Origin: Eledone cirrhosa
Lineage: Eukaryota
Direction of reading: 5' to 3'
Length of the DNA stretch: 64,000 nucleotides
Assembly (NCBI GenBank): GCA_964016885.1
Contig: OZ024759.1
Span: 4,898,001-4,962,000 of the forward strand
The notes under the pieces were generated by a model. The model was given only the letters and a program-made list of their open reading frames with translations. It did not search any database and was not told the origin of the DNA. Both the position numbers and the translations under genes were made by a program. Within the stretch, counting starts at the first letter, position 1. Each line of letters opens with the position of its first letter. Of the stretch, positions 8,816-64,000 are shown piece after piece.

Positions 8816-9660
8816 ATATTAACTGAAATCACAGTTGAGGGAAATATAGAAGAATATTTTATAAGAAATATAATATAAAAAATATTACAAGAAAAACATC
8901 TGTATATTCTGTTGAAGAAGAAATCATTATGCCAAATAAATTGACAAAGAAGATTAAATGTGTAACACAATCTAAAGTGTTTAGTATTGCTGGTGAGATG
9001 ACAAAGGTTAGAGAAGAGAAGCCATATCACTGTGATATCTGTGATAAATCATTCTCTCAAAGTGGTACCTTAACTACTCACAAACGTATACATACAGGAG
9101 ACAAGCCATATCACTGTGATATCTGTGGTATATCATTCTCTGGGAAAAGTAGCCTAACTACTCACAAATGTATACATGCAGAAGAGAAATCATAATGCAT
9201 TGACATCAGTGATAAATCCTTCTCTCAAATTTGTGAATTAATGAGAATACAAATACATATCATTGTAACATCTTAGGGAAATCCTTCTCTTTGAATGTTA
9301 CATTAACTATACACACACATATACATACAGCTGGGAAGCCATATCACTTTGATATATTTGGTACATCATTCTCTAAATGTTGTGGCTTCACTAGACACCA
9401 ACATCTACAGGAGAGGAACCATATCACTGTGATGTCTGTGATAAATCCTTCTCTAAATGTTGTGGTTTCACTAGACACCAACATATACATACAGGAGAGG
9501 AACCATATCACTGTGATGTCTGTGATAAATCCTTCTCTAAATGTTGTGGTTTAATTAGACACTAACATATACAGGAGAGGAACTATATCACTGTGATGTC
9601 TGTGGTACATCTTTCTCTTATAAAGATTACTTAATGCAACACAATTAGATAAAAACCATG
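8816..9660 (+). pseudogene. C2H2 zinc-finger (Kruppel-type tandem array) pseudogene
   Basis: Acceptor TTATCTTCAG ends at 8815. ORF 8929-9195 has two fingers ([32 protein letters not shown]), followed by about 5 fingers broken by stops and frameshifts. Confidence 0.9.
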
Positions 9661-10865: not shown

Positions 10866-12418
10866 TGACACAACATTTAGTGGTTTGAAGTATGCTCCAA
10901 TTTTCCTCCCCTTCACATCTTAACACTCCACCCCCTTACCAGCTAAGTACACCACCCTGACCTACCTCTCCAATCCCCACTCTACATACACACAACCCCA
11001 CCCCCACTTTCACATCTGATACACCTCTCTTGACCAACCCATGTATACAAGTAAGGAAAGCTTAACATTATCTCCTCCAATGCTGCTGAAATGGCTAAAA
11101 GCCCTCAGGCAACCCTGTAAGGTGGTCATGCAAGTGTCATGACAAAAGAGCACCAAGTCCTCTCTGTTAGGTAACATGACAAAAGAACACCTAACCCTCC
11201 CTGCAAGGTAGTCATGCTGATGACATGACAAATAAGCACCCAGTCCACCCTGTGAGGTAGACATGACAGAAGGCCCCTAGCCCACTCTGTAAAGTAGTCA
11301 TGCTAGTGGCAAGACTGAAGGGACCCGAAGCACCCTTCAAAGTGATCAAATTGGTGACATGACTTGACACCATTTTTTAGTTTACTTCTAAAATATCTCA
11401 TTTTTATTTTACTTCTAAAATATCTCATATATTTAAAAATTACTTATTTTAAAAAATTATTATTTATTTCTTAAAAAAATTACTTTTTAAAGATTATTTA
11501 AAATTTTTTTATATTTTTTAATATTTTTTAAATATTTTTAAACATTTTAAATAGTTTAAGTACTTTTTAAGTATTTTATTTTGTTAAAAGGGTTTTTTGA
11601 GTATCTTCTGAGATTAAAAAAAAATTTTTTTTTATTTTTCCAGAAATGTTTTCCAGAACTTTTAATATTTTAATATTTTAAATATTTTTTAATTATTTAA
11701 TATTAGAGTTATAACCAATAACTAATTCTGGCTATATATATCTTTCAACATTTATATCTTCGTCAAAATGGTCTCTTACTAACTAATAAATAAACAAAGC
11801 TGGGTTTTTCAGTATCTTCCTAATTTAAAACATTAAAAACATATAAATAATCTTATTAACTCAGTTAATTTAATTACTTACACTAAATATAAACCAGTAT
11901 CCCTCATAACTTATTAAAACAATTATCTATAACATGATATAGCCATTTATCCACTCATATATCTATTCTTCTATCTATTGATTCTCCTATTTTCTACTTT
12001 ATATCTATTTATTTTCAATTTATTATTCAATGTCTTTATATATATTTATTTTTTCTATATATCTATTTTTCTATATACTTATAATAGTAAATATTATATT
12101 GTATTATATTAGAATTCTAACAATAATTAGTAAATATACGTAACATTAATATAAACGTAATACTTATTTACGTTACATGAGTTCATCCTCTATAAATGTC
12201 TTTCTTCTCTCTATCTCTCTATCTATCTCATAACAGTAATTTTTTTCTCTCTCTTTCTTCTCTTTCTTCCCTATCTTTCCCCAGCGTAATTTAAATAAAC
12301 GGTTGTTTTTTCAATTTTTCATACATTCATTTGCATATTCACACATAACTTTGAATTACCCCTAATAAGTTTCCCCTATCCAGCGAATTTCCGACCGTTA
12401 TTTATAAAACAAATTTTG

Positions 12419-12483
12419 TATTTTATCTGATGAAAGAGCACCAAGATTGACTTGGTCGCCCTTGAAATATATATAATAAAATA
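12419..12483 (+). ncRNA. Candidate minimal type I hammerhead ribozyme, copy 1
   Basis: Stem I TATTTTAT/ATAAAATA; core CTGATGA 12427-12433; stem II AAG..ACCAAG-ATTGA-CTTGGT..CTT; GAAA 12464-12467; short palindromic stem III; AUA cleavage triplet ending at 12475. Confidence 0.7.
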
Positions 12484-13597
12484 AATATGCAAAAGTTCTA
12501 TTTAAATTGTTGGGATACAACAAGCAAATATGTTTATAACTGATATAAAGCACTCAACAAGTATTTGGAATAAACATACGATATTAACAATCCTTTTGTA
12601 TTTTATGTACTCAATTATACGATGTACTATATTGATTTATACTTCTCTCTATATGTGAGTATATATGTATATGTGTATATTGACATACATGTACATGTGT
12701 TCTATGCATTTTTATGAATATATGTCTGTCTGTATGTATGCATGCGTGACGCGAATCTACCAATTGGCCGAGGATGCACACACATGTATATATATGTATA
12801 TGTAAGAATTGTGTGTGTACATGTACATGTATACCCATACAATTTGATTGCAGATAGACATAACTAACAGCCATAAATGCATAACAGCTAATCTTATATA
12901 TTTATATATATATATTAAAAAAAATTTGTTATAAAAAATATTTTATTTAATAACACAAAGGATGGATAACATTAAATTAAAAATTCATTTATGCTTTGTA
13001 TGTATATATTATATACGTGGTTAGATATGGTGTGTATTTTGTGAGTGTGTGTATATATATATATTTATGTGTATTTTTGCGTGTGTGTACGTGTTATATG
13101 ATATGTAGTTCTCTAGCAATATATAGATTTCTTAATGTTTAGATTCCAATTTTTAATATATTGATCTCAATTTTTAAACTAAATATCTAATCATAGTTAA
13201 ACAATGATTAATTTCTCATATTATGTATGTATATTCCATTCATGATTATTAATATTTCTAATTTTATTTATTCATTTCATCTCAATTGTTAAGTTAACTT
13301 AATATGACATGACTTAATGTGTTCATTCTTTCCCCCTCTCTCTATCTCTATATTTTTGTCTCTGTCTGGTGTTTTGATATATCTCTCTCGTTTTTCTCTC
13401 CTTTTTCTTTTTTCTTGTTTTCTTTCTTTCTTTCTCCCTTTTCTCTCTCTCCGTCCTTTTCCTTATCTGTAACACAACGACTTATTTTAAAAATACTAAT
13501 ATAAGTAAACAACTCCACTATCCCTGAGTCTTCCAAAAGTAACGGTTGCATTTTGTAAGGGTATGTCAATATTTATTTATAAAACTGTTATATATTG

Positions 13598-13662
13598 TAT
13601 TTTGTCTGATGAAAGCATACCATAATTTAACATGGTATCCTTGAAATATGTATAATGAAATA
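13598..13662 (+). ncRNA. Candidate minimal type I hammerhead ribozyme, copy 2
   Basis: Stem I TATTTTGT/ATGAAATA (two G-U pairs); CTGATGA 13606-13612; stem II AAG-C-ATACCAT/ATGGTAT-C-CTT; GAAA 13643-13646; AUA triplet ending at 13654. Confidence 0.7.
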
Positions 13663-13730
13663 GATATGGTTTTATAAATATAGTTTCCATTTGTTAATAT
13701 CGTATAATAAAATAAATATAGTTTTATAAA

Positions 13731-14110
13731 TCATCATCACCGTTTTACGTCCGTTCTTCCATGCTAGCATGGGTTAGACGGGTTGTCCTGTTGTGGGCAG
13801 TGTCTGGTCGGCTGACCATGCCTTGCTCATACAGAAACTGATTTTGGCTTTTCTACAGCCGGATGCCCTTCCTAACACCAACCTCATTTACAGTGAGTGT
13901 TGCGTGCTTTTTTCCGTGGCGCCCACACGTCCACTTTACAGTGTGGGCTGGGTGCTTTTTCTGTGTGGCACCTCCACGACCACTTTGCAGTGGGAGGGTG
14001 TGGGGGCATATTGTCTATATGCTTCATCTTGAACCCATGGAAGGTCGGGTACTCTGTATTACTGCGTGACGCCAGAGGTCACGGTCGTGTGTCATCATCG
14101 CCTTTGAGAG
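13731..14110 (-). mobile_element. RTE LINE 3' end (3' UTR plus GAT tail)
   Basis: Reverse complement of 39285-39660. Similar 3' pieces at about 7540-7880, 32336-32500, 34513-34870 and 47770-48100. Confidence 0.9.
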
Positions 14111-14116
14111 GTGTGT

Positions 14117-16000: not shown

Positions 16001-16261
16001 ATTTCCTAATTCCACTTAATTCCATTAAATATTCAATCTTGGTCGAAATAAATATTTTCATCTGTGACGATCTGTACAACCAATAATAGTAGGAGTCACG
16101 TTACATGATATGTATCTATATATACAGGATGTCCCTAAAATATGTATACACATTTACATAGACTGTAGTTGAAGTGTGTATACATTTTGGGGAGACCCTG
16201 TATATATTTTATTTATATATATATATGTTAAAAGATGATTGATATATATATCTACACTCAA

Positions 16262-16651
16262 ATAAATTAATAAAATAATGAATAAACAAAGAAACAGTTC
16301 TTTATATTAAAAAAATTCATCATTTTACGATCGTTTCTAGGATATATATGTGTTAGAGTTGGTATGCATATTCTATAGATCTATGTACAATATTTATAAA
16401 AACTATCAGAGGGAATATACATACCTACACATATATATGCTGTCTTCAGAAATAATATTATTTCTGAAGACATCATATATATGTGTAGGTATGTATATTC
16501 CCTCTGATAGTTTGTATAAATATTGTACATAGATCTATAGAATATGCATATCACCTCTAACACATATATATCCTAGAAACGATCGTAAAATGATGAATTT
16601 TTTTAATATAAGGAACTGTTTCTTTGTTTATTCATTATTTTATTAATTTAT
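16262..16651. repeat. Spacerless palindrome with 195-bp arms
   Basis: Centre GAAATAAT|ATTATTTC at 16456/16457 with only a handful of mismatches. The mirror ORFs 16350(+) and 16381(-) reflect this symmetry. Confidence 0.97.
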
Positions 16652-16845
16652 CTTGACTCTGTTTTCCGTTTATTTTTCACCGAAAGTAGTTGTTGAATGC
16701 ATCTTCTCTTTTCATGATATCTGGATTACATTGAGTTCTTCATACGGATTGGACACTACCGTAAACTTTTGGTAGATTTATCTACATTCTACACTCAAAT
16801 GTATATTTATATATTTATATATATATAAATATATATAAATATATT

Positions 16846-22479: not shown

Positions 22480-25400
22480 ATAATTAATAAAAAAGATGTC
22501 CGTCAATGTAAAGAAGGTCCCTATTTACTTGAAATGGTTTATACAAATGCCAAATTAATATGGATATGGATAACATGCTTATCTATAAGTGGTCAGCTAT
22601 AATAATAAAACAACAAATTATATGACACAAAAATTTATTCAGTAATTTCCAGGCTCTTAGCCACTGAGTAATAGACAGTCAATATTGCCCAGAGTTCAAC
22701 TCGGGGAGGTGGCCTGGTTTGAACTCAAAATGGCGGATCCTTCTACTTCGAAAATAGAATCGTTTTTCAATATTACTCTAGCCCTGGCCGGCCATAGGCA
22801 CCAAACTTTTTGCCAGACTCAGCATATGATGAGGTTTTATTACCACTGCAATCAGAAGCGATAAATTTGAAGGCAATTTCTACCAATACTTGTTGGTTTT
22901 TATTGCTCATTATCGACAATAAATGACATTGGACATAAATGATAACTCTGCCAAAGCTCACAATACAGATGAAAGGAAACCAATGTCCGAATCATATACG
23001 TCGCTTATTGATAGCTTTAAAGATATGCATACATCAGCTCAAAGCTTCATTATAGACAATATTTAGGTTTGTTACTCTGTTAGTGGTATCAATTGCAAAT
23101 TTTATACCATCAGGATCGCACACTCGAGATGCAGCAACATAGAGTTGCCCATGGCTGAATGCTGGATCATTCAAGTAGACACCAACTCGCTTGAAAGTCT
23201 GTCCCTGTGCCTTGTTGACAGTCATGGAGAAGGCCAAATTGACGGGAAACTGTCTCCTTTGCCAAATAAATGGCAGCAGATCTTCACTTGGTCTCAGCAT
23301 GATCCTCGGAATGAGAACCGATTCCTCTCTGCCTGGGAGTTTAGCTTCTAAAACTCTTCCGTTAATCAATCTCTCAACAATCAATCTGGTACCATTGCAA
23401 AGACCCATTTTATGATTGATATTTCTAAGCAATATAATCGGCAAACCCTTTTTCAACCTCAAAATATGTGGGGGAAATCCGGGTATTTGAAGTGAATTCA
23501 GATACTCAGTCGGAACATCCATACTGTTCTGCTGATTAGGCTCCATTGCATACGCACTGACGGTCAACCATTCCTCTCCAGGAAACATTCCGGCTACTTG
23601 TGAATTTATTTCATCGACCGTTGTATTCGTATGAGTTAGAATAACATGTTCCGATATCCAGGAGATATTCTGCCAAAAAGCATTCAAATTAGGGAACACC
23701 CAGTCAATCAAGCCTTGGCGGTCCAGTGGCATGACCAAATGGTCTGGGATTCATACAGTCTGATTATCACCAACGTGTGGCAATTCATCGTTTCCCAACT
23801 GCATCAACCATCGGCCGTATGTCTCAGCCTCTTCGTTTTGCCCGAACATAGGAAGTCGCATATTATCGTGTAATCGCAAAACTCTGAAATGGCCCCACAA
23901 CGGGGACTTTTTCAGACATGCATCGACAATTTGCGCTCTTTGAGCATTCCTAACAATTGGTAGCACCTGTCTGAAATCGCCACCAACAACGATAGTCTTA
24001 CCACTGAATGGCAGGTCACTACCGCAGATATCTCTCAAAGTTCTGTCCAATGCCTCCAGCAAATATCTGTGTGCCATTGGAGCCTCGTCCCAAATAATCA
24101 GAGACGTATTGCGTATAAGGCCCGCGAGTTCACTTTGTCCTGTAATATTACAGACACTCAACTCATCTGGAGCCAATGGAGCCTTGAAGCATGAGTGGAA
24201 GGTCCTTCCACCACTCAGCAAAGTGGCAGCGATGCCCCTGGTGGGCACAGGGAGAGCAATCTTCCTCTGAGCTCTGACTGCCGATAACATAGTGTTGAAA
24301 CAGAATGTCTTTCCGGTGCCTCCTGGAACATCTATGAAAGCACAAAGTTGCTCATTAGTGGAAATCGAGTGGAGAGCGCCATCGACCAATTCTCTGTGAG
24401 ATTGGGTCAACATTGGCATACGTTCATCCACAATACGTTGCTGTTCCAGTGGATCAAACTGGAATAGTTCCCTCCGATCGAGTGGCAACCGTCTAAGCTG
24501 CAATCTCATGTTCAATGCTAAGACACGTTGCCGCATTTCTTCATCAGGAATTGGCAAATTGAAATCTGTTAAACATTTCAAATGAACTTCGAGCAGTTGC
24601 TCAATATTGAGCAAAACAATAGCCTTCATCAAATGTTCATCATAGACCTGAAGATGGTGCCTAAAATCATCAGCCATAATTCCCCAATGGCGTTCAAATA
24701 ACTCTCTTGGATCGGCAGGATTGCAGAATCCTAGAATCGTGACAAACAACTGCCATATTCGAGCTGGCATCTGTGTTGTTCCTGCAGCTTCCATGGCGTT
24801 ATTCCATTCAGCGTCATCCTGAAGGAGTCCCAGATGCTGACACACAGCCTGGTATCTTTTATATTCCACGCCATTGATTGTTTTCAAATCAGCGAAGCTC
24901 TGTTTACCTCTCGAAAAATCACTATGCAACAGAATTCGGAGATAAAACACATCACCAGATGCTGGATGGACATTACAAACCCGTCCAATAGTCATGAATC
25001 TCAACTTTTGTTTTCTATCATTCCATTTCTTTCCCTTCTTATCCCACGTATAGTGCGAAGGGAAATCGCAGTAGAGTTGCTTTTGATCCGGGTTCAAAGC
25101 ATGTTCCCTATTATGCTTGAACCACTCAGTCAATTCCGTCTTAGGAGGTGGTGCGTTAGCAATTCTTTCTATACCTCTTCTACTGTCCTTAAAACAGACC
25201 ATTTGCCTATTCTCTAAGTGAACCGTCAGTTTCTGAACGCTGTGTTTGCGTTCATTGAGATCAAAATCGAACAATCTCCAGCAAGCTTCGCTAGATCCAA
25301 TCGAGCGAACATCCTGGAACCTGCCAACTTCATCTCCTTGGTTCGCTTCCTCATTCCTGACATTCATCATTGCCCCATCATGACCTTTGTAAACATACTT

Positions 25401-27962
25401 GAATAGATATTTGCAAGCTTTCACTGAGCTACAAATTTCCACATTAATATGACAACGATATTTCATAATCAAATATGGATTGTATGGCACAACCCATTGA
25501 TTTGTAACCTGTCGACCGTTTACATTTTCGACCAAACCGCCATCGGCAGGCGACCGTCTTCTGTATGAGGGATGAGCATCCCCATCATTCCAGGAAGTGT
25601 TCGTGACAAAAGATTTCGGAAAGTGCTTACTGCATTGGCCATTTTTCATGCAAGGCGCTTTCCGATTTGCCACTCCGCATTGGTTGTGCACCATTGACTT
25701 TGCCACCAAGTTGCATAGTGCCTCATTCTCCGGCAGTTCAGCACACACAATGCTGTCGACATCCTCAGCACATCACAATTTGCTATGTCTATGTAAAATG
25801 ATCAGCAAATGTGCATGTGGCAATCCTCTTTTTTGGAATTCAATTACGTATGTAAAAGCAACTATACCTCCAAAGATTCCCTCTTTTTCCACATCATCCA
25901 TTATCTTTTTCAGATATCCTTTGAATACTCTTGCCACAATATCAGGACGGTCCTTTGGCTGTTGTCCTGGCAAAAGTGCATCCTTAATATCAGTCCATTC
26001 AGGATTGCATGTAACAGTTATAAACAAATCTGGCTTTCCAAACTTTCTGACAATAGCCATTGCATCCTGATAGCGAATGTTCATATATCTCGGGCCGCCG
26101 ATGAACGACGATGGCAAAATGATGCGTCGACCAATTTGCTTGTAATTGGCATCATCGGCTGTTATCGCATCCTGTATATTATTATACAATTCAGCTCTGA
26201 TATGTTGCTGATGTGTAGCTATATAATTTAGCCTTTGATTTTCGATCTTTGCGTATGCCATACAACAGTATTCCTGGAACAATCTGCTGGCTTGAAATAG
26301 CGCATTTCTCTGTTGATTCCTCTCGTTCAAATGGAACGCGTAAAAGTCGCGAATCGAATTATTGTGTCTATTACCACCTCCCTGTTGATGCTGATTCTCA
26401 TGATCATCTAAATGAACAGACATGTTCCATCCATTTTCACCTTTTGGGAATAAAAGAACATAATGCAATGGATGGTATGTCCTATTTGACTCATTGATAG
26501 TGTTGAGACCACCATCTCTGCGATTGAGGGCGATATCTCTCGATCCAGGCTTATCGTCCATCAACACAGCAACTTCACGAAATCCTTCGGGGGCATTATA
26601 TCGCCGTTCGTGTTGATTCCTTGGCACTGCGTCAGCCTTAATCACCAATGTTTGTTGCTGAACATTCTGCAGTTCAGCCACCAACATGAAATCCATAACA
26701 TAAGGATTACACTGTCTAAGCCATGATTGCAAATCATGGATCAAATCACTTAACCTTTGCCGTTCAAGTTCAGTTATATTTCCCGGCAACTTCATCCAAC
26801 CGATCCTGATATCCTCCTCCGATTCACTATAATCTGGATTGTTAACGTAAATTTGAGCGAATCAAGGCCTCTCTCCTGGGGTAACTTCTAAATTATCGAT
26901 ACAATGATACAAACGGCATTGAATGACGACATTCGGTTGCCATGCTCCACTCTCAAACATCTCACTAACTCTCTGCGATGCTAAAGCTAATAAATTGTTA
27001 ATTTGCCGCGAATATTTGCGCAGTAATCTACCTCGGTCTCATTGATCACCCCACATACTTAGTATTTTAAACTCCGGTGACTCCCCATCATCCGGCATTC
27101 GCAAAGGTTCTAGTTGAACTGCTCCTTTGTGACAGCACATTGTGGTCCACGTCTTTTCGTGCCACCAAAGCAATGCTCCACAATGTGGAGACCCTGGTCG
27201 TCCACCAATCTGACAGTGACACGGTTGCCATGATCCATTTTTAATATCATTCGTTCGCCTCTTTACTGGAATGAGGAGCACTTTGCGACACATTCCCTGA
27301 ACTTCTGTATTGCGCTGGCGCTGTTCAGCCAGCTCCTCTTCATCCACCGGAGCACGCCATTGCTGCTGAATTCTGGCCACCTGCTGATGATGCTCAGCCA
27401 GTTCGTTTTTCAACCATCGCAGCACTCCGTCGCCGCTGTAGTTCACTGTTTGATAAAGTCGAATTGCTTTTCTTATCAGTATTCATTTGGAGCAATTGTA
27501 AAAAAAAATGACACAATAATAAATATAAAAGATGTCCGTCAATGTAAAGAAATGTCCCTATTTACTCCCTTCACAACTCTGTGTATGACAGACAGGCACA
27601 CAGACAGATAAACTGCGCGGCGATTGTGGAACGTCACACGCATACACGCATGGAAACGCGCACACGCACACAAACTTACACACGCACACACTCACACATG
27701 TTGATAGTTTTTACTTTCTGTGGAACACTGCACGCACGCACACACACATAAACATACGCGCACATACATACACACGCATACATGTTAATAGTTATTGAAC
27801 ACAGTGTTCACACTCTCCCCTCTCACTCCCTCATTGGCATTATGCATATTAATTTCAGTTTGGCGTCGTTGGGGTGGGCGGAGTCCTTTGAAACCTATGA
27901 ACCAATGATAATCGAGAATTGTGACACACGAAATACTGACGTTCTTCAAATTAATAAATAGA
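22480..27962 (-). mobile_element. Near-complete autonomous-type Helitron
   Basis: A|TC 5' terminus (TCTATTTATTAA) at 27962 and an internal RepHel coding region. No 3' hairpin of its own was seen. Confidence 0.9.
23034..27446 (-). pseudogene. Helitron RepHel (HUH endonuclease plus PIF1-family helicase), split by a few frameshifts and stops
   Basis: Rep motifs PDLFITVTCNPEW, IEFQKRGLPHAHLLI and KYLFKYVYKG. Helicase motifs PGGTGKT, IWDEAPM, GGDFRQVLP, NKAQGQT and HGQLYVAASR. N-terminal Cys-rich PHCGALLW..MCCHKG. Confidence 0.95.
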
Positions 27963-33001: not shown

Positions 33002-34085
<1,084 letters not shown>

Positions 34086-34253
34086 TATGTATATACATAT
34101 ATATATATATACACACACACACACAATTATATAGAACAATAAAATATGGCACCAGATGTTCAACCCAAGACCTTATGATTGAGAACAGCACACCTGTAAC
34201 CTCTAAGCTATATATCTTCACACAGACTTTCTGATAAAGACAGAAGTACCCAC

Positions 34254-34391
34254 CTGACTGACAGTTGTCTCCCCTGAAACCAGCTGCACATCCAACACTA
34301 GAACACACCCCAGATTTAATGTCGCAATGATCGTTGTCAGCACAGTGGCACAAATACTGACAGTTCAAGCCAAAATAACCCTTTTTACATT
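34254..34391 (-). CDS. Multiple-EGF-repeat protein (MEGF10/11/SREC-like), exon 11 of 11 intact in window
   Basis: 138 bp, AG/GT, phase 1: ECKKGYFGLNCQYLCHCADNDHCDIKSGVCSSVGCAAGFRGDNCQS. Confidence 0.9.
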
Positions 34392-34871
34392 CTGAAAAAA
34401 AAAAAAAAAGAAAATAGAATTATATACACAACATATATATAAAATTATACACAATAACACATATATACAATTATACACAGCTATAACATACATATACACA
34501 ATTATACATAACTATAATGCCAATGTGCGTGAATGACCAAGCATAGACGAGTTGAGAAAGAAACTGGGTATAAGAGGGATAAGTTGTGGTGTGTAGGAGA
34601 GAAGGCTGAGCTGAGATGGTATGGACATGTGATGCGCATGGAGGATGACCGCTGGGTAAAGAAGTGCCAAGAAATCCCAGTAGAAGGAAGACGCAGTAGA
34701 GGTAGACCATGAAAAACATGGGCGGAGGTGGTGAGAGAAGACCTCAAATTGCTGAAACTCACGGAGGAGATGACAAGGGACCGTGACGAATGAAGAGATG
34801 CCATGCTTAATAAGACCCGTCCCACCCTTGCAAGCAGGGAAAAGCGGACGTAAAATGATGATGATGATGAT

Positions 34872-44498: not shown

Positions 44499-46115
44499 CT
44501 GAAATATAGAGCTATTATTTATTATTTATTCATGAGTGAATAAGAATTGTTTCGACTTTTGACATAAGGCCAGCAATTACCCCAGTGCATTACTGGTACT
44601 TTATTTTATCGACCCCGTAAGGTCGAAAGGCAAAGTTAACCTCTGTGGGATTTGAACTCAGACCGTAAAGAACCATAACTCTATGCTGCAAAGCATGGCA
44701 TCCGACGCTCTACCGATACTGCCAATCCACTACCCTCACGATTCAATAATAATTATTTCTACTTTTTGCACAAGGCTAGCAATTATCCCAGTGTATTACT
44801 GGTACTTTATTAGTAATGCACTGGATAACAATAATGTTATAATAGTATTATAATATCATTAATATTCAGTTTGTTTGCCAGCAAACAGCCTCATAAACAC
44901 CACGTGTGTTTTCTAGATGAACAATGTCATCCTTTTGTTGTAAAAGGGAAAGAAATGGGCAGAACTGTTGGAGTGTTTGTTGGATGAAATGCTTTGCAGA
45001 ACTTCTGAGGTCTGAGTTCAAATCTTGCTCAGGTCAAACTTGAATGTCATTTTTACAAGCTTGATAAAATAATGTACCAGTTAAATACTGGGGTAGATAT
45101 AATCAACTGACTTTCTCTTTACTCCAAAATTAAGAAATCATTATTAACCCTTTACCATTCACATTACTCTATATATACTATTGTGTATTTTCATGGTAAA
45201 GGCTTTATCTCACATAATTATCTCACATAATTATCTCACATAATATCGAATCTATGAGATTTTGAAAGTATTTATTTTGAGAACAATACCTTAACATCAG
45301 TTTGAGCGACCAGTTACAGCCAATATCAACAGAAAGAGGTAGAGAATTCTGGCCGGTTTGGGCCAGTTTGAACACGAAAGGGTTAATTAAAAACATTGGT
45401 ACATTTGTGCTTTACATAGTTTTGGCTTGGTTTTACTGGTTGGGTATTCTTCTTGTAACCAATCACTTTACTGAGTGGCCTGGGTGCACCAGTTCTTGAG
45501 AGGTTGTACTAATTAGGGTGGCACCAAGTGGATACAAAATGTGGGACGAAAAGAAGAGAGAGGAGTCAGTTGAAAATGTCTGAGTGGAGGTGGCATGAAC
45601 CTAGAATACTCCGAGGAACAGAGTCCAATATAGTAGTGGTGGAAAGCAGGAGGAGAAGGCACATGGGGAGAGTATCAGTGAAGAAGAGAAAAAATGGTGT
45701 ATCCATTTGGTTTATAGTCAAGTTTTATTTTTTTTAAACAAGCACCTTTATAGGCTTAGTCGGCCACCTATGAGGTTGTCACCCCATAGGAAGTATTCTG
45801 GGTGTTTCAATGGTAAGGACACCATGTCTATCATGTTGTTGTTACAGCTCACATTTATGTAGGTTTGGCTGGCCCCCTACAAGGATGCACTCCATAGGAA
45901 ATATTCTGGGTGTTTTAATAATAAGGACCCCAGGCCTATCATGTTGTTACAGCTCTACCTATGTAGGTTTAACTGGCCTCTGACAAAAATGCACCCCAAA
46001 GGAGCCTCGGTCTTTTCATGTCACTCTTTCCTTGGTAAGTTTGGAATCTCACTTTGAAGTGCCATGTGCTCACCTAGAAATACAAATAGCATAGAAGATC
46101 TACTGAATGACTCAC

Positions 46116-46253
46116 CTGTCTGACAATTGCTACCTTGATAGCCAGCTTCACAGCCACCACTGGAACATACACCTGTGATGGGGTCACACTTGCTGTTGTT
46201 GGCACAGTGACATGAGTTAATACAGTTGTCACCAAATTTACCACTTCTACACT
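46116..46253 (-). CDS. EGF-repeat gene exon 6
   Basis: 138 bp: CRSGKFGDNCINSCHCANNSKCDPITGVCSSGGCEAGYQGSNCQT; donor GTGAGT. Confidence 0.9.
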
Positions 46254-46294
46254 CTGGGTACATTAAATATGAAGAATATAGAAGTTAGATGGAA

Positions 46295-47510: not shown

Positions 47511-47583
47511 CTATGGCAGAAAAAAAAATATATATAATTCCAAAATTAAATTAAGGGTGTCATGTCCGAGAGACATGCGCCAT

Positions 47584-47693
47584 TAAACAACATAAGACAA
47601 TTATTCCATTTACCAAAGGTTTTATGAAGACTGACGAGCTCGTCTGTCTTCGTGAAACCTTTGGTAAATGGAATAATTGTCTTATGTTGTTTA
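47584..47693. repeat. 110-bp spacerless palindrome
   Basis: 55-bp arms centred on GAG|CTC with three mismatched positions. Confidence 0.95.
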
Positions 47694-48269
47694 TTACATA
47701 ACTAAATAGCTCTGTAGCTTACATAGTGCACTCTCCTTTCCTTCGGAAACACTTAATATATATATATGCAGAAGACCTGACTTCCCTAGGGTACAAGCCG
47801 AAGCTGAAGCATATGGAAAATATGCCCCCACCCCCTCCTCCCACTGCAAAGTGGTCGTGGAGGTGTCATGACAAAAAAGCACCCAGCCCACACTGTAAAG
47901 TGGACATGTAGGCGCCACGGTAAAAAAGCACCTAGCACTCACTGTAAATGAGGTTGGTGTTAGGAAGGGCATCCAGCTGTAGAAATCAAGCCAGCATCAG
48001 TTCCCATATGAGCAAGACAAGGTCACTCGACCTGGCATTGCCTACAACAGGACAACCGGTCTAACCCATGGAAGAATGGACGTAAAAGGGTGATGGTGAT
48101 GATATATATTTTTTTCACTAATGTCACACAAAATTGTATGTTTTTTGTAGCTTTATGGTTTAACGGTTTCCTTTTTAAAAATTGTTTTTTTGTTTTGTTT
48201 TGTTTTCGTTCGCTGTCTTCTCTTTTCTTTGTTGATTTTCTTAAATATATATATATATAAATATATGTA

Positions 48270-48400: not shown

Positions 48401-49389
48401 CCCTCTTGTTGCTATTTCAAGTGTTAACCTAATATTTTCTTTCCATATACTGTACCGATTGTGTTGTTATCTCTGTTTACACACAATCATCATCATCATC
48501 ATCATCATTTTACGTCCGCCTTTCCCTGCTTGCAAGGGTTGGACGGGTTCTATTCAGCGCAGCATCTCTCCACTTGTCACGGTCCTTCGTCATCTCCTCA
48601 GATTACATTTATTGTATTCAGCCATGTAGAGTGGAAATTTTATTTTATTTGAATGTGGCAAAGCCGGTCATTTATTGCTCGTATACAGGAAACTGACTGG
48701 CCAGTCTGCTGATATACAAATCTGGCTGATCAGTGGATCTGCTAATATGCAGATCTGACTGATCAGCCAGTCTGCTAATATGGAAATCAGGCCGATCAGC
48801 CACTGTATATTTTAGAAAATAGTATATATTTTCACTAGCTCTGACAGTTGGCAGGTGAAGAGTGAGCTGTACTGATGAAGGCTGATACCCAGAAAAATTA
48901 GTGTCTGCAATTCTGTTTACATGCCAACACAAGAGCAAGAATGATGGGTTCATTCTATTGACATGGCTTTAAAATTGAGGCTTGTTTGCATAATTGCAGA
49001 CGAATCGAATGCTATTATTAATATTCGAAAAGGGCGGTAGATTGGCAGTATCGGTAGAGGGTCGGACCATGCTTTGACGCATAAAGTTACGGCCCTTGCT
49101 ATTCTGAGTTCAAATCCCGCTGAGGTTAACTTTGCCTTTCATCCTTATGGGGTCGATAAAATAAAGTACCAGTAATACACTGGGTAATTGCTGGCCTTGT
49201 GCCAAAAGTAGAAACAATTATTAATATTCGAAAAACTCAGATTACATATATATATAGAGATATATATATATGGCTTAAAAGAGAAGATGAATGGTGTGTC
49301 TGACACATTGAGGTTGATGGAGACACCTTGCTGAGAGTCATAACACCAGACACTTCAAATTTCATGCTGTTCTGATGCATTGAGATGGA

Positions 49390-49600
49390 ACAGCTGCTAC
49401 CTTTATAACCAGCACCACACCCTCCATTGGAACACACACCTGTCTGACAGTTGCTACTTCCACAACCAGCACCACATCTTCCGCTGGAACACATACCTGT
49501 CTGACAGTTGATACCTTTATAATCAGCACCACACATTCTACTATAACACACACCTGTCTCTGTGTTACACCTGTCTCTGTGTTACACCTACTGTCATCTT
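49390..49600 (-). repeat. Partial EGF exon duplicate with three in-frame 57-bp repeats
   Basis: ACCTGT at 49438, 49495 and 49552; reads CGADYKGINCQTGMCSSGRCGAGCGSSNCQTGVCSNGGCGAGYKGSSC. Confidence 0.85.
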
Positions 49601-53382: not shown

Positions 53383-53425
53383 TGGACTGGTGAGAGATAA
53401 AAGCTGAGATATGAAAATAACTAAC

Positions 53426-53563
53426 CTTTCTGACAACTGTTTCCTTCATAACCTGGAGCACATCTACCCCTTGAACAGATCCCTAATTCCACATTACACC
53501 TGTTGTTATCTTCACAATGACACACCTGATCACAGTTGGCACCAAGTCTTCCACTACTGCACA
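53426..53563 (-). CDS. EGF-repeat gene exon 3
   Basis: 138 bp: VCSSGRLGANCDQVCHCEDNNRCNVELGICSRGRCAPGYEGNSCQK; donor GTTAGT. Confidence 0.9.
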
Positions 53564-53590
53564 CTGTAACAGGAAAACATTGGTGTAGAT

Positions 53591-54317
53591 CAGGGATTGG
53601 CAACTTCTTTGCCTCCACGGGCCGGACGAATGCCATAAAAGAATAATTATGGAAAATTACACAAGCTAAAATTTAATCTCGAGTGTTGACTATACTATTC
53701 ATTTCTCAAATCTTGAATTATATTCACAAATACCTCTGAATCCTGTGATTTCCCTCCTTGAAATGATGGAAAATGCACAATTTTTATTTCAAAGTTGATG
53801 TTCCCACAACTGTAGCTTTTTTTCAAAGACAACAATATGGTTATACATTTCATTTACGAGCTGAGTTTTACCTTGAAGTTGTAAATTTAAGTTATTTAAC
53901 CCTTTAGCACTTACATTATTCTATATTTACTATTGTAGTTTCACAGTAAACACTTTATCTTATATAGTTATCTCACATAATATTGAATCTATGAGATTTT
54001 GATATTATTTATTTTGAGAAGAATACCTTAACGTCAGTATGAGTGGCTAGTTACAGCCGGTTTGAACAGAAAAAAGTGAGAGATTTCTGGCCGGATATGG
54101 CCGGTTTAAATGCTAAAGGGTTAAACGAGTCACAATATCCTCAATAAATACCAAAGTTGTAACAGCAGGCCTTTTATTGTATTCGAAAGGCTCGTCTCTC
54201 ATGTTACAATAAATTTAAATTTTAAATAAACAACTCATTGGGCATAAGTTCTTGCAGGCTGGTCGAAATCCTTTCCTGAGCTGGACCGGCCTGTGCGCCA
54301 TAAGTAGCCAACCCCTG
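53591..54317. mobile_element. hAT-like MITE containing a nested piggyBac-type MITE
   Basis: CAGGGATTGGCAACTT ... AAGTAGCCAACCCCTG termini; nested TTAA element at 53896-54124. Confidence 0.6.
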
Positions 54318-57430: not shown

Positions 57431-57745
57431 GCTCCAATAAATTAGTCATCCCCATTTTTCCTCAACACATGATCCAGCATATCCTTTCATTTCTCTTCAT
57501 AAATATTATTGACACTATTTACATCAATCTCTGCAAAATATTGATTTCCTGCCTCTTTCATGGGGATATTTCACCGGACCATTCTCATTTCAAGTCTCCT
57601 CTGCTTTCTCTGTTGTTCCATCTTCATCAATCATGTCTCACTCTTAAAAATAATGTCACTTCTAACACATGTAGCATACATTTTTCCCTTCCATGTGATG
57701 TCTCAATATATTAAGTTAGAAACCAAGCTATACTACACCACTTAC

Positions 57746-58948
57746 CTGTCTGACAGTTTCTATCTTCATAACCAGCACCACACCTGTCTGACAGTTGCTA
57801 CCTTCATAACCAGCACCACACCTGTCTGACAGTTGCTACCTTCATAACCAGCACCACACCTGTCTGACAGTTGTTACCTTTATAACCAGCACCACACCTG
57901 TCTGACAGTTTCTATCTTCATAACCAGCACCACACCTGTCTGACAGTTGCTACCTTCATAACCAGCACCACGCCTGTCTGACAGTTGCTACCTTCATAAC
58001 CAGCACCACACCTGTCTGACAGTTGTTACCTTTATAACCAGCACCACACCTGTCTGACAGTTGCTACCTTCATAACCAACACCACACCTGTCTGACAGTT
58101 GTTACCTTCATAACCAGCACCACACCTGTCTGACAGTTGCTACCTTCATAACCAGCACCACACCTGTCTGACAGTTGTTACCTTTATAACCAGCACCACA
58201 CCTGTCTGACAGTTGTTACCTTCATAACCAGCACCACACCTGTCTGACAGTTGTTACCTTTATAACCAGCACCACACCTGTCTGACAGTTGCTACCTTCA
58301 TAACCAACACCACACCTGTCTGACAGTTGTTACCTTTATAACCAGCACCACACCTGTCTGACAGTTGCTACCTTCATAACCAGCACCACACCTGTCTGAC
58401 AGTTGTTACCTTCATAACCAGCACCACACCTGTCTGACAGTTGTTACCTTTATAACCAGCACCACACCTGTCTGACAGTTGTTACCTTCATAACCAGCAC
58501 CACACCTGTCTGACAGTTGTTACCTTTATAACCAGCACCACACCTGTCTGACAGTTGTTACCTTCATAACCAGCACCACACCTGTCTGACAGTTGTTACC
58601 TTTATAACCAGCACCACACCTGTCTGACAGTTGTTACCTTCATAACCAGCACCACACCTGTCTGACAGTTGTTACCTTTATAACCAGCACCACACCTGTC
58701 TGACAGTTGCTACCTTCATAACCAGCACCACACCTGTCTGACAGTTGCTATCTTCATAACCAGCACCACACCTGTCTGACAGCTGATACCTTTATAACAA
58801 GCACCACACCTCCACTACAACACACACCTGTCTGACAGCTGATACCTTTATAACTAGCACCACACCTCCACTACAACACACACCTGTCTGACAGTTGATA
58901 CCTTTATAACAAGCATCACACCTCCATTACAACACCCACCTGTCTGAC
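57746..58948 (-). repeat. Exon-end-derived array: about 27 x 38 bp plus 3 x 56 bp
   Basis: 38-bp unit TGGTGCTGGTTATGAAGGTAGCAACTGTCAGACAGGTG (GAGYEGSNCQT plus GT). The array ends in an authentic ACAG|GTAAGT donor at 57746. Confidence 0.95.
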
Positions 58949-62020: not shown

Positions 62021-64000
62021 CACACACGTGTCTGACAGGTGCTACCTTATAACCAGGACCACACCATCTACTGTAACACACCTGTCTGATAGGTGATACC
62101 TTATAACCAGGACCACACCATCTACTGTAACACACCTGTCTGACAGGTGCTACCTTATAACCAGGACCACACCATCTACTGTAACACACCTGTCTGATAG
62201 ATGATACCTTATAACCAGGACCACACCATCTACTGGAACACACCTGTCTGACAGGTGCTACCTTATAACCAGGACCACACCATCTACTGTAACACACCTG
62301 TCTGATAGATGATACCTTATAACCAGGACCACACCATCTACTGTAACACACATGTCTGACAGGTGCTACCTTATAACCAGGACCACATCATCTACTGTAA
62401 CACACCTGTCTGATAGATGATACCTTATAAACAGGACCACACCATCTACTGTAACACACCTGTCTGACAGGTGCTACCTTATAACCAGGATCACACCATC
62501 TACTGTAACACACCTGTCTGACAGGTGCTACCATATAACCAGTAGCACACCATCTACTGGAACACACGTGTCTGACAGGTGCTACCTTATAACCAGGACC
62601 ACACCATCTACTGTAACACACCTGTCTGACAGGTGCTACCTTATAACCAGGACCAGACCTTCTACTGTAACACACCTGTCTGACAGGTGCTACCTTATAA
62701 CCAGGACCACACCATCTACTGTAACACACCTGTCTGACAGGTGCTACCTTATAACCAGGACCACACCATCTACTGTATCACACATGTCTGATAGCTGCTA
62801 CCTTATAACCAGGACCACACCATCTACTGTAACACACCTGTCTGACAGCTGCTACCATATAACCAGGACCACACCATCTACTGTAACACACCTGTCTGAT
62901 AGATGATACCTTATAACCAGGACCACACCATCTACTGTAACACACCTGTCTGACAGGTGCTACCTTATAACCAGGACCACACCTTCTACTGTAACACACC
63001 TGTCTGACAGGTGCTACCTTATAACCAGGACCACACCATCTACTGTAACACACCTATCTGACAGGTGCTACCTTATAACCAGGACCACACCTTCTACTGT
63101 AACACACCTGTCTGACAGGTGCTACCTTATAACCAGGACCACACCATCTTCTGTAACACACCTGTCTGACAGCTGCTACCATATAACCAGGACCACACCA
63201 TCTACTGTAACACACCTGTCTGATAGCTCCTACCTTATAACCAGGACCACACTATCTACTGTAACACACTTGTCTGACAGGTGCTACCTTATAACCAGGA
63301 CCACACCATCTACTGTAACACACCTGTCTGATAGATGATACCTTATAACCAGGACCACACCATCTACTGGAACACACCTGTCTGACAGGTGCTACCTTAT
63401 AACCAGGACCACACCATCTACTGTAACACACCTGTCTGATAGATGATACCTTATAACCAGGACCACACCATCTACTGTAACACACATGTCTGACAGGTGC
63501 TACCTTATAACCAGGACCACATCATCTACTGTAACACACCTGTCTGATAGATGATACCTTATAAACAGGACCACACCATCTACTGTAACACACCTGTCTG
63601 ACAGGTGCTACCATATAACCAGGATCACACCATCTACTGTAACACACCTGTCTGACAGCTGCTACCATATAACCAGTACCACACCATCTACTGGAACACA
63701 CGTGTCTGACAGGTGCTACCTTATAACCAGGACCACACCATCTACTGTAACACACCTGTCTGACAGCTGCTACCTTATAACCAGGACCACACCATCTACT
63801 GGAACACACCTGTCTGACAGGTGCTACCTTATAACCAGGACCACACCATCTACTGTAACACACCTGTCTGATAGATGATACCTTATAACCAGGACCACAC
63901 CATCTACTGGAACACACCTGTCTGACAGGTGCTACCTTATAACCAGGACCACACCATCTACTGTAACACACCTGTCTGATAGATGATACCTTATAACCAG
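62021..64000 (-). repeat. Exon-end-derived 54-bp array, more than 36 copies, running off the window
   Basis: Unit TGTTACAGTAGATGGTGTGGTCCTGGTTATAAGGTAGCACCTGTCAGACAGGTG, homologous to the exon segment CSSGGCAPGYEGSNCQTG. Confidence 0.95.

Follow-up and report, generated by a model that had tools for sequence, protein, structure and literature searches.

Two hammerheads on one strand

A 64-kb stretch of the Eledone cirrhosa genome (GenBank assembly GCA_964016885.1, contig OZ024759.1, forward-strand positions 4,898,001 to 4,962,000; hereafter the window) contains two type I hammerhead ribozyme motifs, copies 1 and 2, on the same strand and ~1.18 kb apart (Table 1). Judged from their sequences, both are real type I hammerhead folds. 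A pair of hammerheads with covarying stems at this spacing had been proposed earlier from the letters alone (the original prediction). Our analysis confirms it: the cores lie where they had been placed, and shuffled sequence yields close to no matches. That prediction named two ribozymes, both of them real, and missed two more at 16258-16656, which bring the window to four hammerhead copies.

Copies 1 and 2 follow a common plan. On the + strand, CUGAUGA starts at 12427 and 13606 and GAAA at 12464 and 13643. Stem I is 8 bp in each copy, and the 30-nt stem II region of both begins with A-U, A-U and G-C closing pairs followed by an internal mismatch, giving 11 bp in copy 1 and 10 bp in copy 2. 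The tiny palindromic stem III first described is palindromic as stated; the actual segment is 8 nt long, self-complementary, and able to form 8/8 pairs both within each copy and between the two. Standard pairs lie beside the core in helices I, II and III, and helix I is open. Hammerhead positions are numbered here by the established convention. The core elements CUGANGA, GAA, A15.1-U16.1 and H17 are present in all four copies of the window, and the A17 positions of copies 1 and 2 predict the same cleavage sites as before, after 12475 and 13654. An A-U pair closes stem II in both copies and no extra base follows A9; the consensus features of Penelope-like element (PLE) hammerheads, G10.1-C11.1 and an extra base after A9, are thus absent. 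Loop 2 is unlike between the copies and lies 10-11 bp away from the core.

Thirteen identical bases directly precede both copies. The further helix once taken to be peculiar to copy 2 therefore has a counterpart in copy 1, where the 3' partner arm is degenerate. The distal 5' arm of copy 1 pairs perfectly (12 bp) with the 3' arm of copy 2. Pyrimidine-rich CT tracts lie ~110 bases upstream of each copy (12199-12285 for copy 1), and no upstream homology between the copies was found beyond these tracts and the 13-base flank.

Table 1. Positions of the hammerheads and associated features in the window.
Feature	Position	Strand	Description
Type I hammerhead, copy 1	12399..12508	+	Identified by descriptor, folding and pair comparison
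Copy 1, distal arm	12399-12410	+	
Copy 1, stem I	12419-12426/12476-12483	+	
Copy 1, core	12427-12433	+	
Copy 1, stem II	12434-12463	+	
Copy 1, GAA	12464-12466	+	
Copy 1, stem III	12467-12474	+	Self-complementary; predicted cut after A12475
Type I hammerhead, copy 2	13574..13680	+	Identified by descriptor, folding and pair comparison
Copy 2, distal helix	13574-13585/13669-13680	+	
Copy 2, stem I	13598-13605/13655-13662	+	
Copy 2, core	13606-13612	+	
Copy 2, stem II	13613-13642	+	
Copy 2, stem III	13646-13653	+	Predicted cut after A13654
RNA predicted to be freed by two cuts	12476..13654	+	1,179 nt; putative release
Spacer segment complementary to third 3' half	12576..12623	+	Noticed post hoc
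Core-less third 3' half	13699..13731	+	Cleavage triplet and stem I 3' strand; 13702-13731 repeats 13650-13679 (90%)
Dispersed repeat, SINE-like (our label)	13730..14113		Adjoins third 3' half; outside ribozyme unit
Head-to-head palindrome	16258..16656		400 bp; arms 97% identical; centre 16456/16457; ~2.5 kb downstream
Hammerhead 3	16456..16595	+	Core CUGAAGA at 16464; 105-nt stem II; predicted cut after A16587
Hammerhead 4	16318..16457	-	Mirror image of 3; core start at 16449; cut predicted after A16326

Divergence of the copies and related hammerheads

A hammerhead descriptor applied to both strands of the window returned two matches. In 200 block-wise dinucleotide shuffles of the window, the loose form of the descriptor gave a mean of 0.015 matches (one match in 3/200 shuffles, two in 0/200), and the strict form gave a match in 0/200. 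Folding z scores of the stem II hairpins are -3.76 and -2.49. Chance motifs, or DNA-level inverted repeats of the foldback or miniature inverted-repeat transposable element type, could merely resemble ribozymes in a region of very high AT content and numerous inverted repeats. In keeping with this, Rfam reports no hammerhead family at gathering score across the window, nor any at E values as high as 10 within 12000-14100 and 16200-16800, a negative outcome for the Infernal check advised in the original prediction. (Matches to Rfam microRNA families, below gathering scores, were dismissed as hairpin noise.) Set against this are the shuffle controls for strict and relaxed descriptors, the invariance of the catalytic bases in four copies, and pair changes that are either one-sided to G-U only or doubly compensated. 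Chance resemblance is scarcely credible.

BLAST homology between copies 1 and 2 is confined to ~97 bp at 78% identity. In a structure-guided alignment of 69 bases that includes 23 pairs, the copies differ at 13 bases, and all core bases are unchanged. Sixteen pairs are unchanged, three differ by G-U, three are double-compensated and one terminal pair is broken. The distal stems II, which had been said to differ entirely, have ACCA/TGGT in common; it is here that the double-compensated pairs and the lost terminal pair are found. Of trials that placed 13 substitutions at random, 0.1-1.0% left no more than one pair broken and 0.2-0.3% produced three or more double changes, the share varying with transition bias. 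Because the motif was ascertained on its core, the smaller joint probability value is given little weight. All three one-sided pair changes are A-to-G, and pairing survives only on the + strand. From these pair-keeping changes we infer that copies 1 and 2 diverged while their RNA structure was under selection, and are not a neutrally decayed duplicate. ADAR editing was considered as a source of the four A-to-G differences and is not claimed, since selection for G-U explains three of them equally well.

The two hammerheads missed by the original prediction form a palindrome in which each arm begins at stem I of a hammerhead. They were detected in a relaxed scan that allowed a stem II of up to 250 nt and required a closing stem II; it gave four matches in the window, whereas 200 shuffles averaged 0.015 (any match in 3/200). 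Hammerheads 3 and 4 share with copies 1 and 2 an 8-bp stem I, an 8-nt self-complementary stem III, A17 and a like stem II base, which in hammerhead 4 (AGCATA/TATCCT) agrees with copy 2 at all 12 bases. Both have a C.A mismatch at 10.1-11.1 beside the core, and hammerhead 3 has one broken pair at the stem II base. With pairs read by position in a four-copy comparison, 5/12 pairs of stems I and III are changed on both sides relative to copy 1 and none is broken. The stem III segments of hammerheads 3 and 4 form 8/8 pairs within and between themselves and 4/8 pairs across to copies 1 and 2, which lack the head-to-head inverted arrangement. Three independent hammerhead sites within 4.1 kb of the 64 kb are expected in ~1.2% of random placements, and this clustering suggests a local insertion hotspot.

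Other inverted repeats were noted. Two nested pairs, 14370-14527/16089-16254 (81%) and 14714-14770/16000-16052 (89%), end right at the palindrome; there is a short hairpin in each outer arm, and a fragment between them looks to us like reverse transcriptase (RT), with no Pfam match. A second palindrome at 47580-47697, with arms of ~58 bp, resembles a hammerhead 3' half (GAAA, a 3-bp stem III and UA). Its junction falls inside the would-be stem II, and no usable core was found in it.

Beyond the window, pattern scans returned 3 and 0 matches in two scans of viral_contigs, 0 in genome_contigs, and 117 loci in metagenome_contigs (49/64 parts scanned); none of the 120 matches folds as a hammerhead with a stem I of >5 bp and a stable stem II. 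The closest metagenome match, L011:1960-2110 (-), which is the same locus as L022, was rejected on its broken stem I. It lies on a eukaryote-like contig, directly after a degenerate minimal-hammerhead-like motif, and its stem III segment is that of copy 1; chance is a possible explanation. An nhmmer profile built from copies 1 and 2 scored strongly for these two training copies only. A word search of sequencing runs found words of the locus in eight runs of four studies; five of the runs have at least half of them, and no run recorded as RNA is among the eight. Three further organism labels, with shares of 0.05-0.14, are not used as evidence. One run of unrecorded kind, comprising 88 million letters of contigs, has 0.63 of the locus words, a larger share than thin sampling of a big genome should give; it could be RNA or multi-copy DNA and is not counted as evidence. 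Our literature search on hammerheads in octopus and other cephalopods found no octopus description, although the supplements of retrozyme surveys could contain an entry; for the giant squid there is an automated count of 235 Hammerhead_1 matches.

Predicted folding and the 1,179-nt spacer

In either copy alone, stem III would consist of 2-3 A-U pairs, too short to close, so catalysis would need a partner. Copies 1 and 2 could serve as partners by exchanging strands, with the 5' half of each pairing to the cut strand of the other. If the + strand is transcribed, this double hammerhead would cut at both predicted sites and yield the 1,179-nt non-coding RNA between them as a by-product. Hammerhead cleavage leaves 5'-OH and 2',3'-cyclic phosphate ends, and RtcB could join these into a circle.

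Modeling is consistent with such a fold. When copies 1 and 2 are connected by a neutral linker, the unconstrained minimum is the double hammerhead, at -39.9 kcal/mol versus -25.6 kcal/mol for two active monomers. For the active homodimers the distance to the minimum is 9.7 and 4.5 kcal/mol, and the mixed pair is at its minimum. Replacing the linker by the real spacer, with the sequence ending at 13690, puts the double hammerhead 1.2 kcal/mol higher than the minimum. These models suggest that copies 1 and 2 are likely to act as a cis double hammerhead, and cleavage by the pair is expected to be slow. The AUA cleavage triplet occurs naturally (PMC1636495).

The spacer is AT-rich and partly microsatellite-like (GC is 0.29 over 12001-14000). 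No Pfam match was found in the spacer frames scanned, and the longest + strand ATG frame is 51 aa. As a circle, 12476-13654 has a predicted energy of -220.8 kcal/mol (z -2.16 against 22 shuffles and -1.96 against 18 block shuffles); the minimum-energy fold contains the junction helix with all 8/8 pairs, and 61% of bases are paired overall. With its size near 1.2 kb and predicted dimer-dependent hammerheads the unit resembles some subviral RNAs, a class that includes avocado sunblotch viroid (ASBVd; PMC6155905), and it could in principle have arisen when a circular replicating RNA, viroid-like or of another kind, became integrated. We regard this as very unlikely. The unit has no hammerhead on the opposite strand, no rod-like fold and no long open reading frame (ORF), and none of the loci from the pattern scans (3 viral, 117 metagenomic) folds as a hammerhead.

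Alternatively, the 1,179 nt could be the monomer of a non-autonomous retrozyme, a mobile element that spreads through circular RNA and becomes integrated bearing a hammerhead at each end, as the original prediction also proposed. Same-strand type I hammerheads around an AT-rich, non-coding unit fit this description, as does the low GC, and retrozyme RNAs from 150 to >1000 nt have been mentioned (PMC7229834). The consensus lengths in a 2026 survey are 51-972 bp (bioRxiv 10.64898/2026.07.22.740005). A retrozyme is by definition a tandem repeat with one hammerhead per unit, and the spacer fails that definition because it is not a tandem unit: it has no second copy within the window, and its alignment with the 1 kb upstream of copy 1 scores no better than shuffles (90/200 local and 16/60 global shuffles score as well), which also rules out a decayed tandem unit. 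The end copies, moreover, are alike over the ~97 bp only, and their differences are compensatory rather than random, a pattern not expected had one recent retro-insertion left a copy at either end. We therefore consider a retrozyme unlikely.

A third, core-less 3' half lies just beyond copy 2, and this 30-bp repeat is predicted to compete with the active fold. Part of the spacer is complementary to its region, with an exact 15-bp inverted match (12576-12590/13691-13705) that was reached in 10/2000 shuffles. The same spacer segment includes a 13-nt direct copy of the copy 1 stem I 5' strand (23/2000 shuffles). Both were noticed post hoc.

Origin of the pair

In our view, copies 1 and 2 are probably terminal-repeat (pLTR) stubs of an octopus PLE family, likely folding as one releasing double hammerhead. 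A PLE origin and dimer-type folding are supported by the self-complementary stem III, the U-rich/A-rich stem I and the neighboring palindrome of the same design. It is likely, from sequence comparison, that the element acts in the manner of dimeric type I hammerheads of the PLE kind, and PLE membership itself is likely as well; the stubs are best read as a long-stemmed octopus variant. The architecture thus agrees with the earlier suggestion of a PLE relic acting as a dimer, but neither point is proven, since the frames scanned yielded no remnant of PLE coding sequence. The two copies would have diverged under RNA-structure selection while in active element lineages. The pair could then have formed through insertion beside older copies within AT-rich DNA; alternatively, two direct pLTRs may have captured host DNA between them.

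Published work provides precedents for these steps. PLE hammerheads mostly occur away from full elements; among those described are some in which helix III is small and palindromic, the flanks are U-rich on the 5' side and AU-rich on the 3' side, and the closing pair is A-U (PMC4209133). By our count, A10.1-U11.1 appears in 3/56 rows of Fig. S3 of that paper, two of them PLE-linked with A17; the A-U closure first flagged as unusual is a minority feature, yet one known from PLE hammerheads. AT-rich DNA is nicked by a PLE protein, whose own pLTR is among its targets, and ribozyme cleavage is not needed for this (PMC11167929). Penelope elements form head-to-head palindromes at inverted pLTR junctions; in PLEs a direct pLTR can also be preceded by 0.9-1.5 kb of unique host DNA as a spacer, and solo pLTRs can have captured non-coding DNA between them (PMC3846280). 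In Octopus vulgaris, PLEs are abundant and recently active, with 31 families and 336 recent insertions (PMC13282606), and PLE abundance in octopus is also reported elsewhere (PMC8967140).

Several observations weigh against this reading. A Pfam scan covered 140 frames of at least 30 aa near the motifs and 128 elsewhere (low-complexity frames and some in the spacer excluded). Neither set contained a match to GIY-YIG or to an RT of PLE type, in agreement with the original remark that no clear RT ORF is present, and the hammerheads accordingly do not lie next to an RT/GIY-YIG ORF in the frames scanned. The 140 frames gave a single weak, unrelated match; the 128 included four RVT_1 fragments, AP endonuclease, Helitron, zinc fingers and EGF-like repeats, with the RVT_1 matches >8 kb from the motifs and one of them beside the AP-endonuclease frame. 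In a lizard PLE the ORF starts at stem II (PMC11167929), whereas the ATG inside the core here opens just 6 codons in one copy and 11 in the other. There is no target-site duplication (TSD) of 6 bp or more around the pair. The DNA downstream of the cuts in copies 1, 2 and 3 is not significantly similar (246, 703 and 905 of 1000 shuffles reach the scores), and common pLTR ancestry beyond the ribozyme therefore lacks support, with relatedness confined to the ribozyme itself. None of the 56 published rows (PMC4209133) has a stem I as long as the 8 bp plus extensions seen here, or a stem II as long as the 10-11 bp of copies 1 and 2 or the 105 nt of hammerheads 3 and 4.

Activity is a further concern. 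Published PLE hammerheads cleave poorly and act as dimers (PMC4209133), 8/9 tested Xenopus retrozyme dimers showed no cleavage (bioRxiv 10.64898/2026.07.22.740005), and for the lizard PLE no reads ended at the cut site (PMC11167929). In our own models, the cross stem III has an ensemble probability of 0.057 with the real spacer to 13690. Adding 13691-13731 widens the gap to the minimum to 10.5 kcal/mol and reduces this probability to 0.0, and it reaches at least 0.33 in just 3/8 boundary sets. The double hammerhead fold is thus predicted to be feasible, and best during transcription, but it is not robustly predicted and depends on construct boundaries.

The same folding data bear on a different explanation, in which selection keeps two co-adapted ribozymes that cut the 1,179-nt RNA out of a transcript of the host and likely circularize it, while the third half without a core serves as a shut-off folding switch. 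The 12-bp pairing of the copy 1 distal arm with copy 2 in place of its own degenerate partner, an active fold that is the minimum for the mixed pair and not for the homodimers, the intact junction helix in a circle with z about -2, and a spacer/third-half complementarity beyond shuffles are all as such a cassette would have them. A sequencing run under a second organism label also has 0.53 of the sampled locus words, as a word match only. Yet the cross-pairing follows from shared ancestry and a self-complementary stem III, and the mixed-pair preference is gone in 5/8 boundary sets. The spacer resembles ordinary microsatellite-rich DNA and folds modestly better than shuffles, and a young, mobile-looking palindrome of the same design lies 2.5 kb away. 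On balance we find host maintenance doubtful, and we are a shade more skeptical of its full form, a two-ribozyme cassette with an obligate heterodimer, a unique 1,179-nt RNA circularized by RtcB, and co-transcriptional gating by the core-less decoy strand.

Several neighboring features complete the picture of the window. A C2H2 zinc-finger array of Octopus type (8839-9650, +), with stops and frameshifts, lies about 2.8 kb upstream on the same strand and is a possible source of read-through transcription over the hammerheads. Of 48 relatives of a zinc-finger frame 3.5 kb upstream, 31 carry an Octopus name, one is named for a bacterium and the others give no organism, a family-level resemblance. 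The dispersed repeat at 13730-14113 gives way to a (TA)25 tract and has copies of 82-91% identity elsewhere in the window. At 23034-27482 (-) there are Helitron Rep-helicase frames (Helitron_like_N, PIF1), broken in a few places by stops. EGF-like exon fragments lie on the - strand at 34030-34419, 46024-46284, 49237-49581 and 53424-53672, and also at 57744-58811 and 62022-64000; by eye, two tandem arrays (periods 38 and 54) look like part of an EGF-like exon.

At the level we consider likely, the locus adds a long-stemmed hammerhead variant, invisible to Rfam, from octopods, a group rich in Penelope elements. The pair offers a natural test case for cis heterodimer cleavage by non-identical PLE-type hammerheads across a kilobase of unrelated sequence, and bears on the in vivo role of slow PLE-type ribozymes. 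Were the cassette conserved and able to make a circle, endogenous circular RNA would have a new route of formation; if domesticated, a single-copy route outside splicing and tandem retrozymes.

The closest likeness is to PLE hammerheads. Those of Drosophila willistoni and Marsupenaeus japonicus have in common with copies 1 and 2 the type I topology, a self-complementary 15.2-16.2, predicted dimer dependence, and A10.1-U11.1 with A17, and PLE hammerheads with a small helix III share the U-rich 5' and A/U-rich 3' flanks (Fig. S3 and text, PMC4209133). Compared with the hammerheads of that paper, stem I here is far longer (8 bp plus up to ~20 further pairs), as is stem II, which has an internal mismatch where it is 10-11 bp and otherwise spans 105 nt. 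Unlike pLTR hammerheads of PLEs, the pair has no PLE ORF nearby in the frames scanned and brackets 1.18 kb instead of ~3 kb of RT-endonuclease sequence. The Penelope elements of Adineta vaga likewise place direct repeats around ~1 kb of unique non-coding DNA and form head-to-head palindromes (PMC3846280). Their pLTRs are ~200 bp, are assigned by the PLE ORF and often have a TSD, whereas here ~97 bp are shared, with no ORF in the frames scanned and no such duplication of 6 bp or more.

Animal retrozymes of the non-LTR type (LTR, long terminal repeat) also have two same-strand type I hammerheads, a low-GC non-coding RNA and RtcB-compatible ends (PMC7229834; bioRxiv 10.64898/2026.07.22.740005). 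They are tandem repeats, typically of 150-450 bp and within the range of the 2026 survey given above, whereas the unit described here is unrepeated and its two ribozymes have diverged. Plant LTR retrozymes differ further, with type III hammerheads, ~350-bp LTRs and a 4-bp TSD, as opposed to type I hammerheads in a ~97-bp repeat. Finally, the co-opted amniote hammerheads (in RECK and CTCL/C10orf118 introns and the Clec2 3' untranslated region) are single, monomer-competent and conserved across species, in contrast to a pair predicted to be dimer-dependent; like the Eledone hammerheads, they are retroelement-like and lie outside a recognizable element (PMC6155905, PMC3088659).

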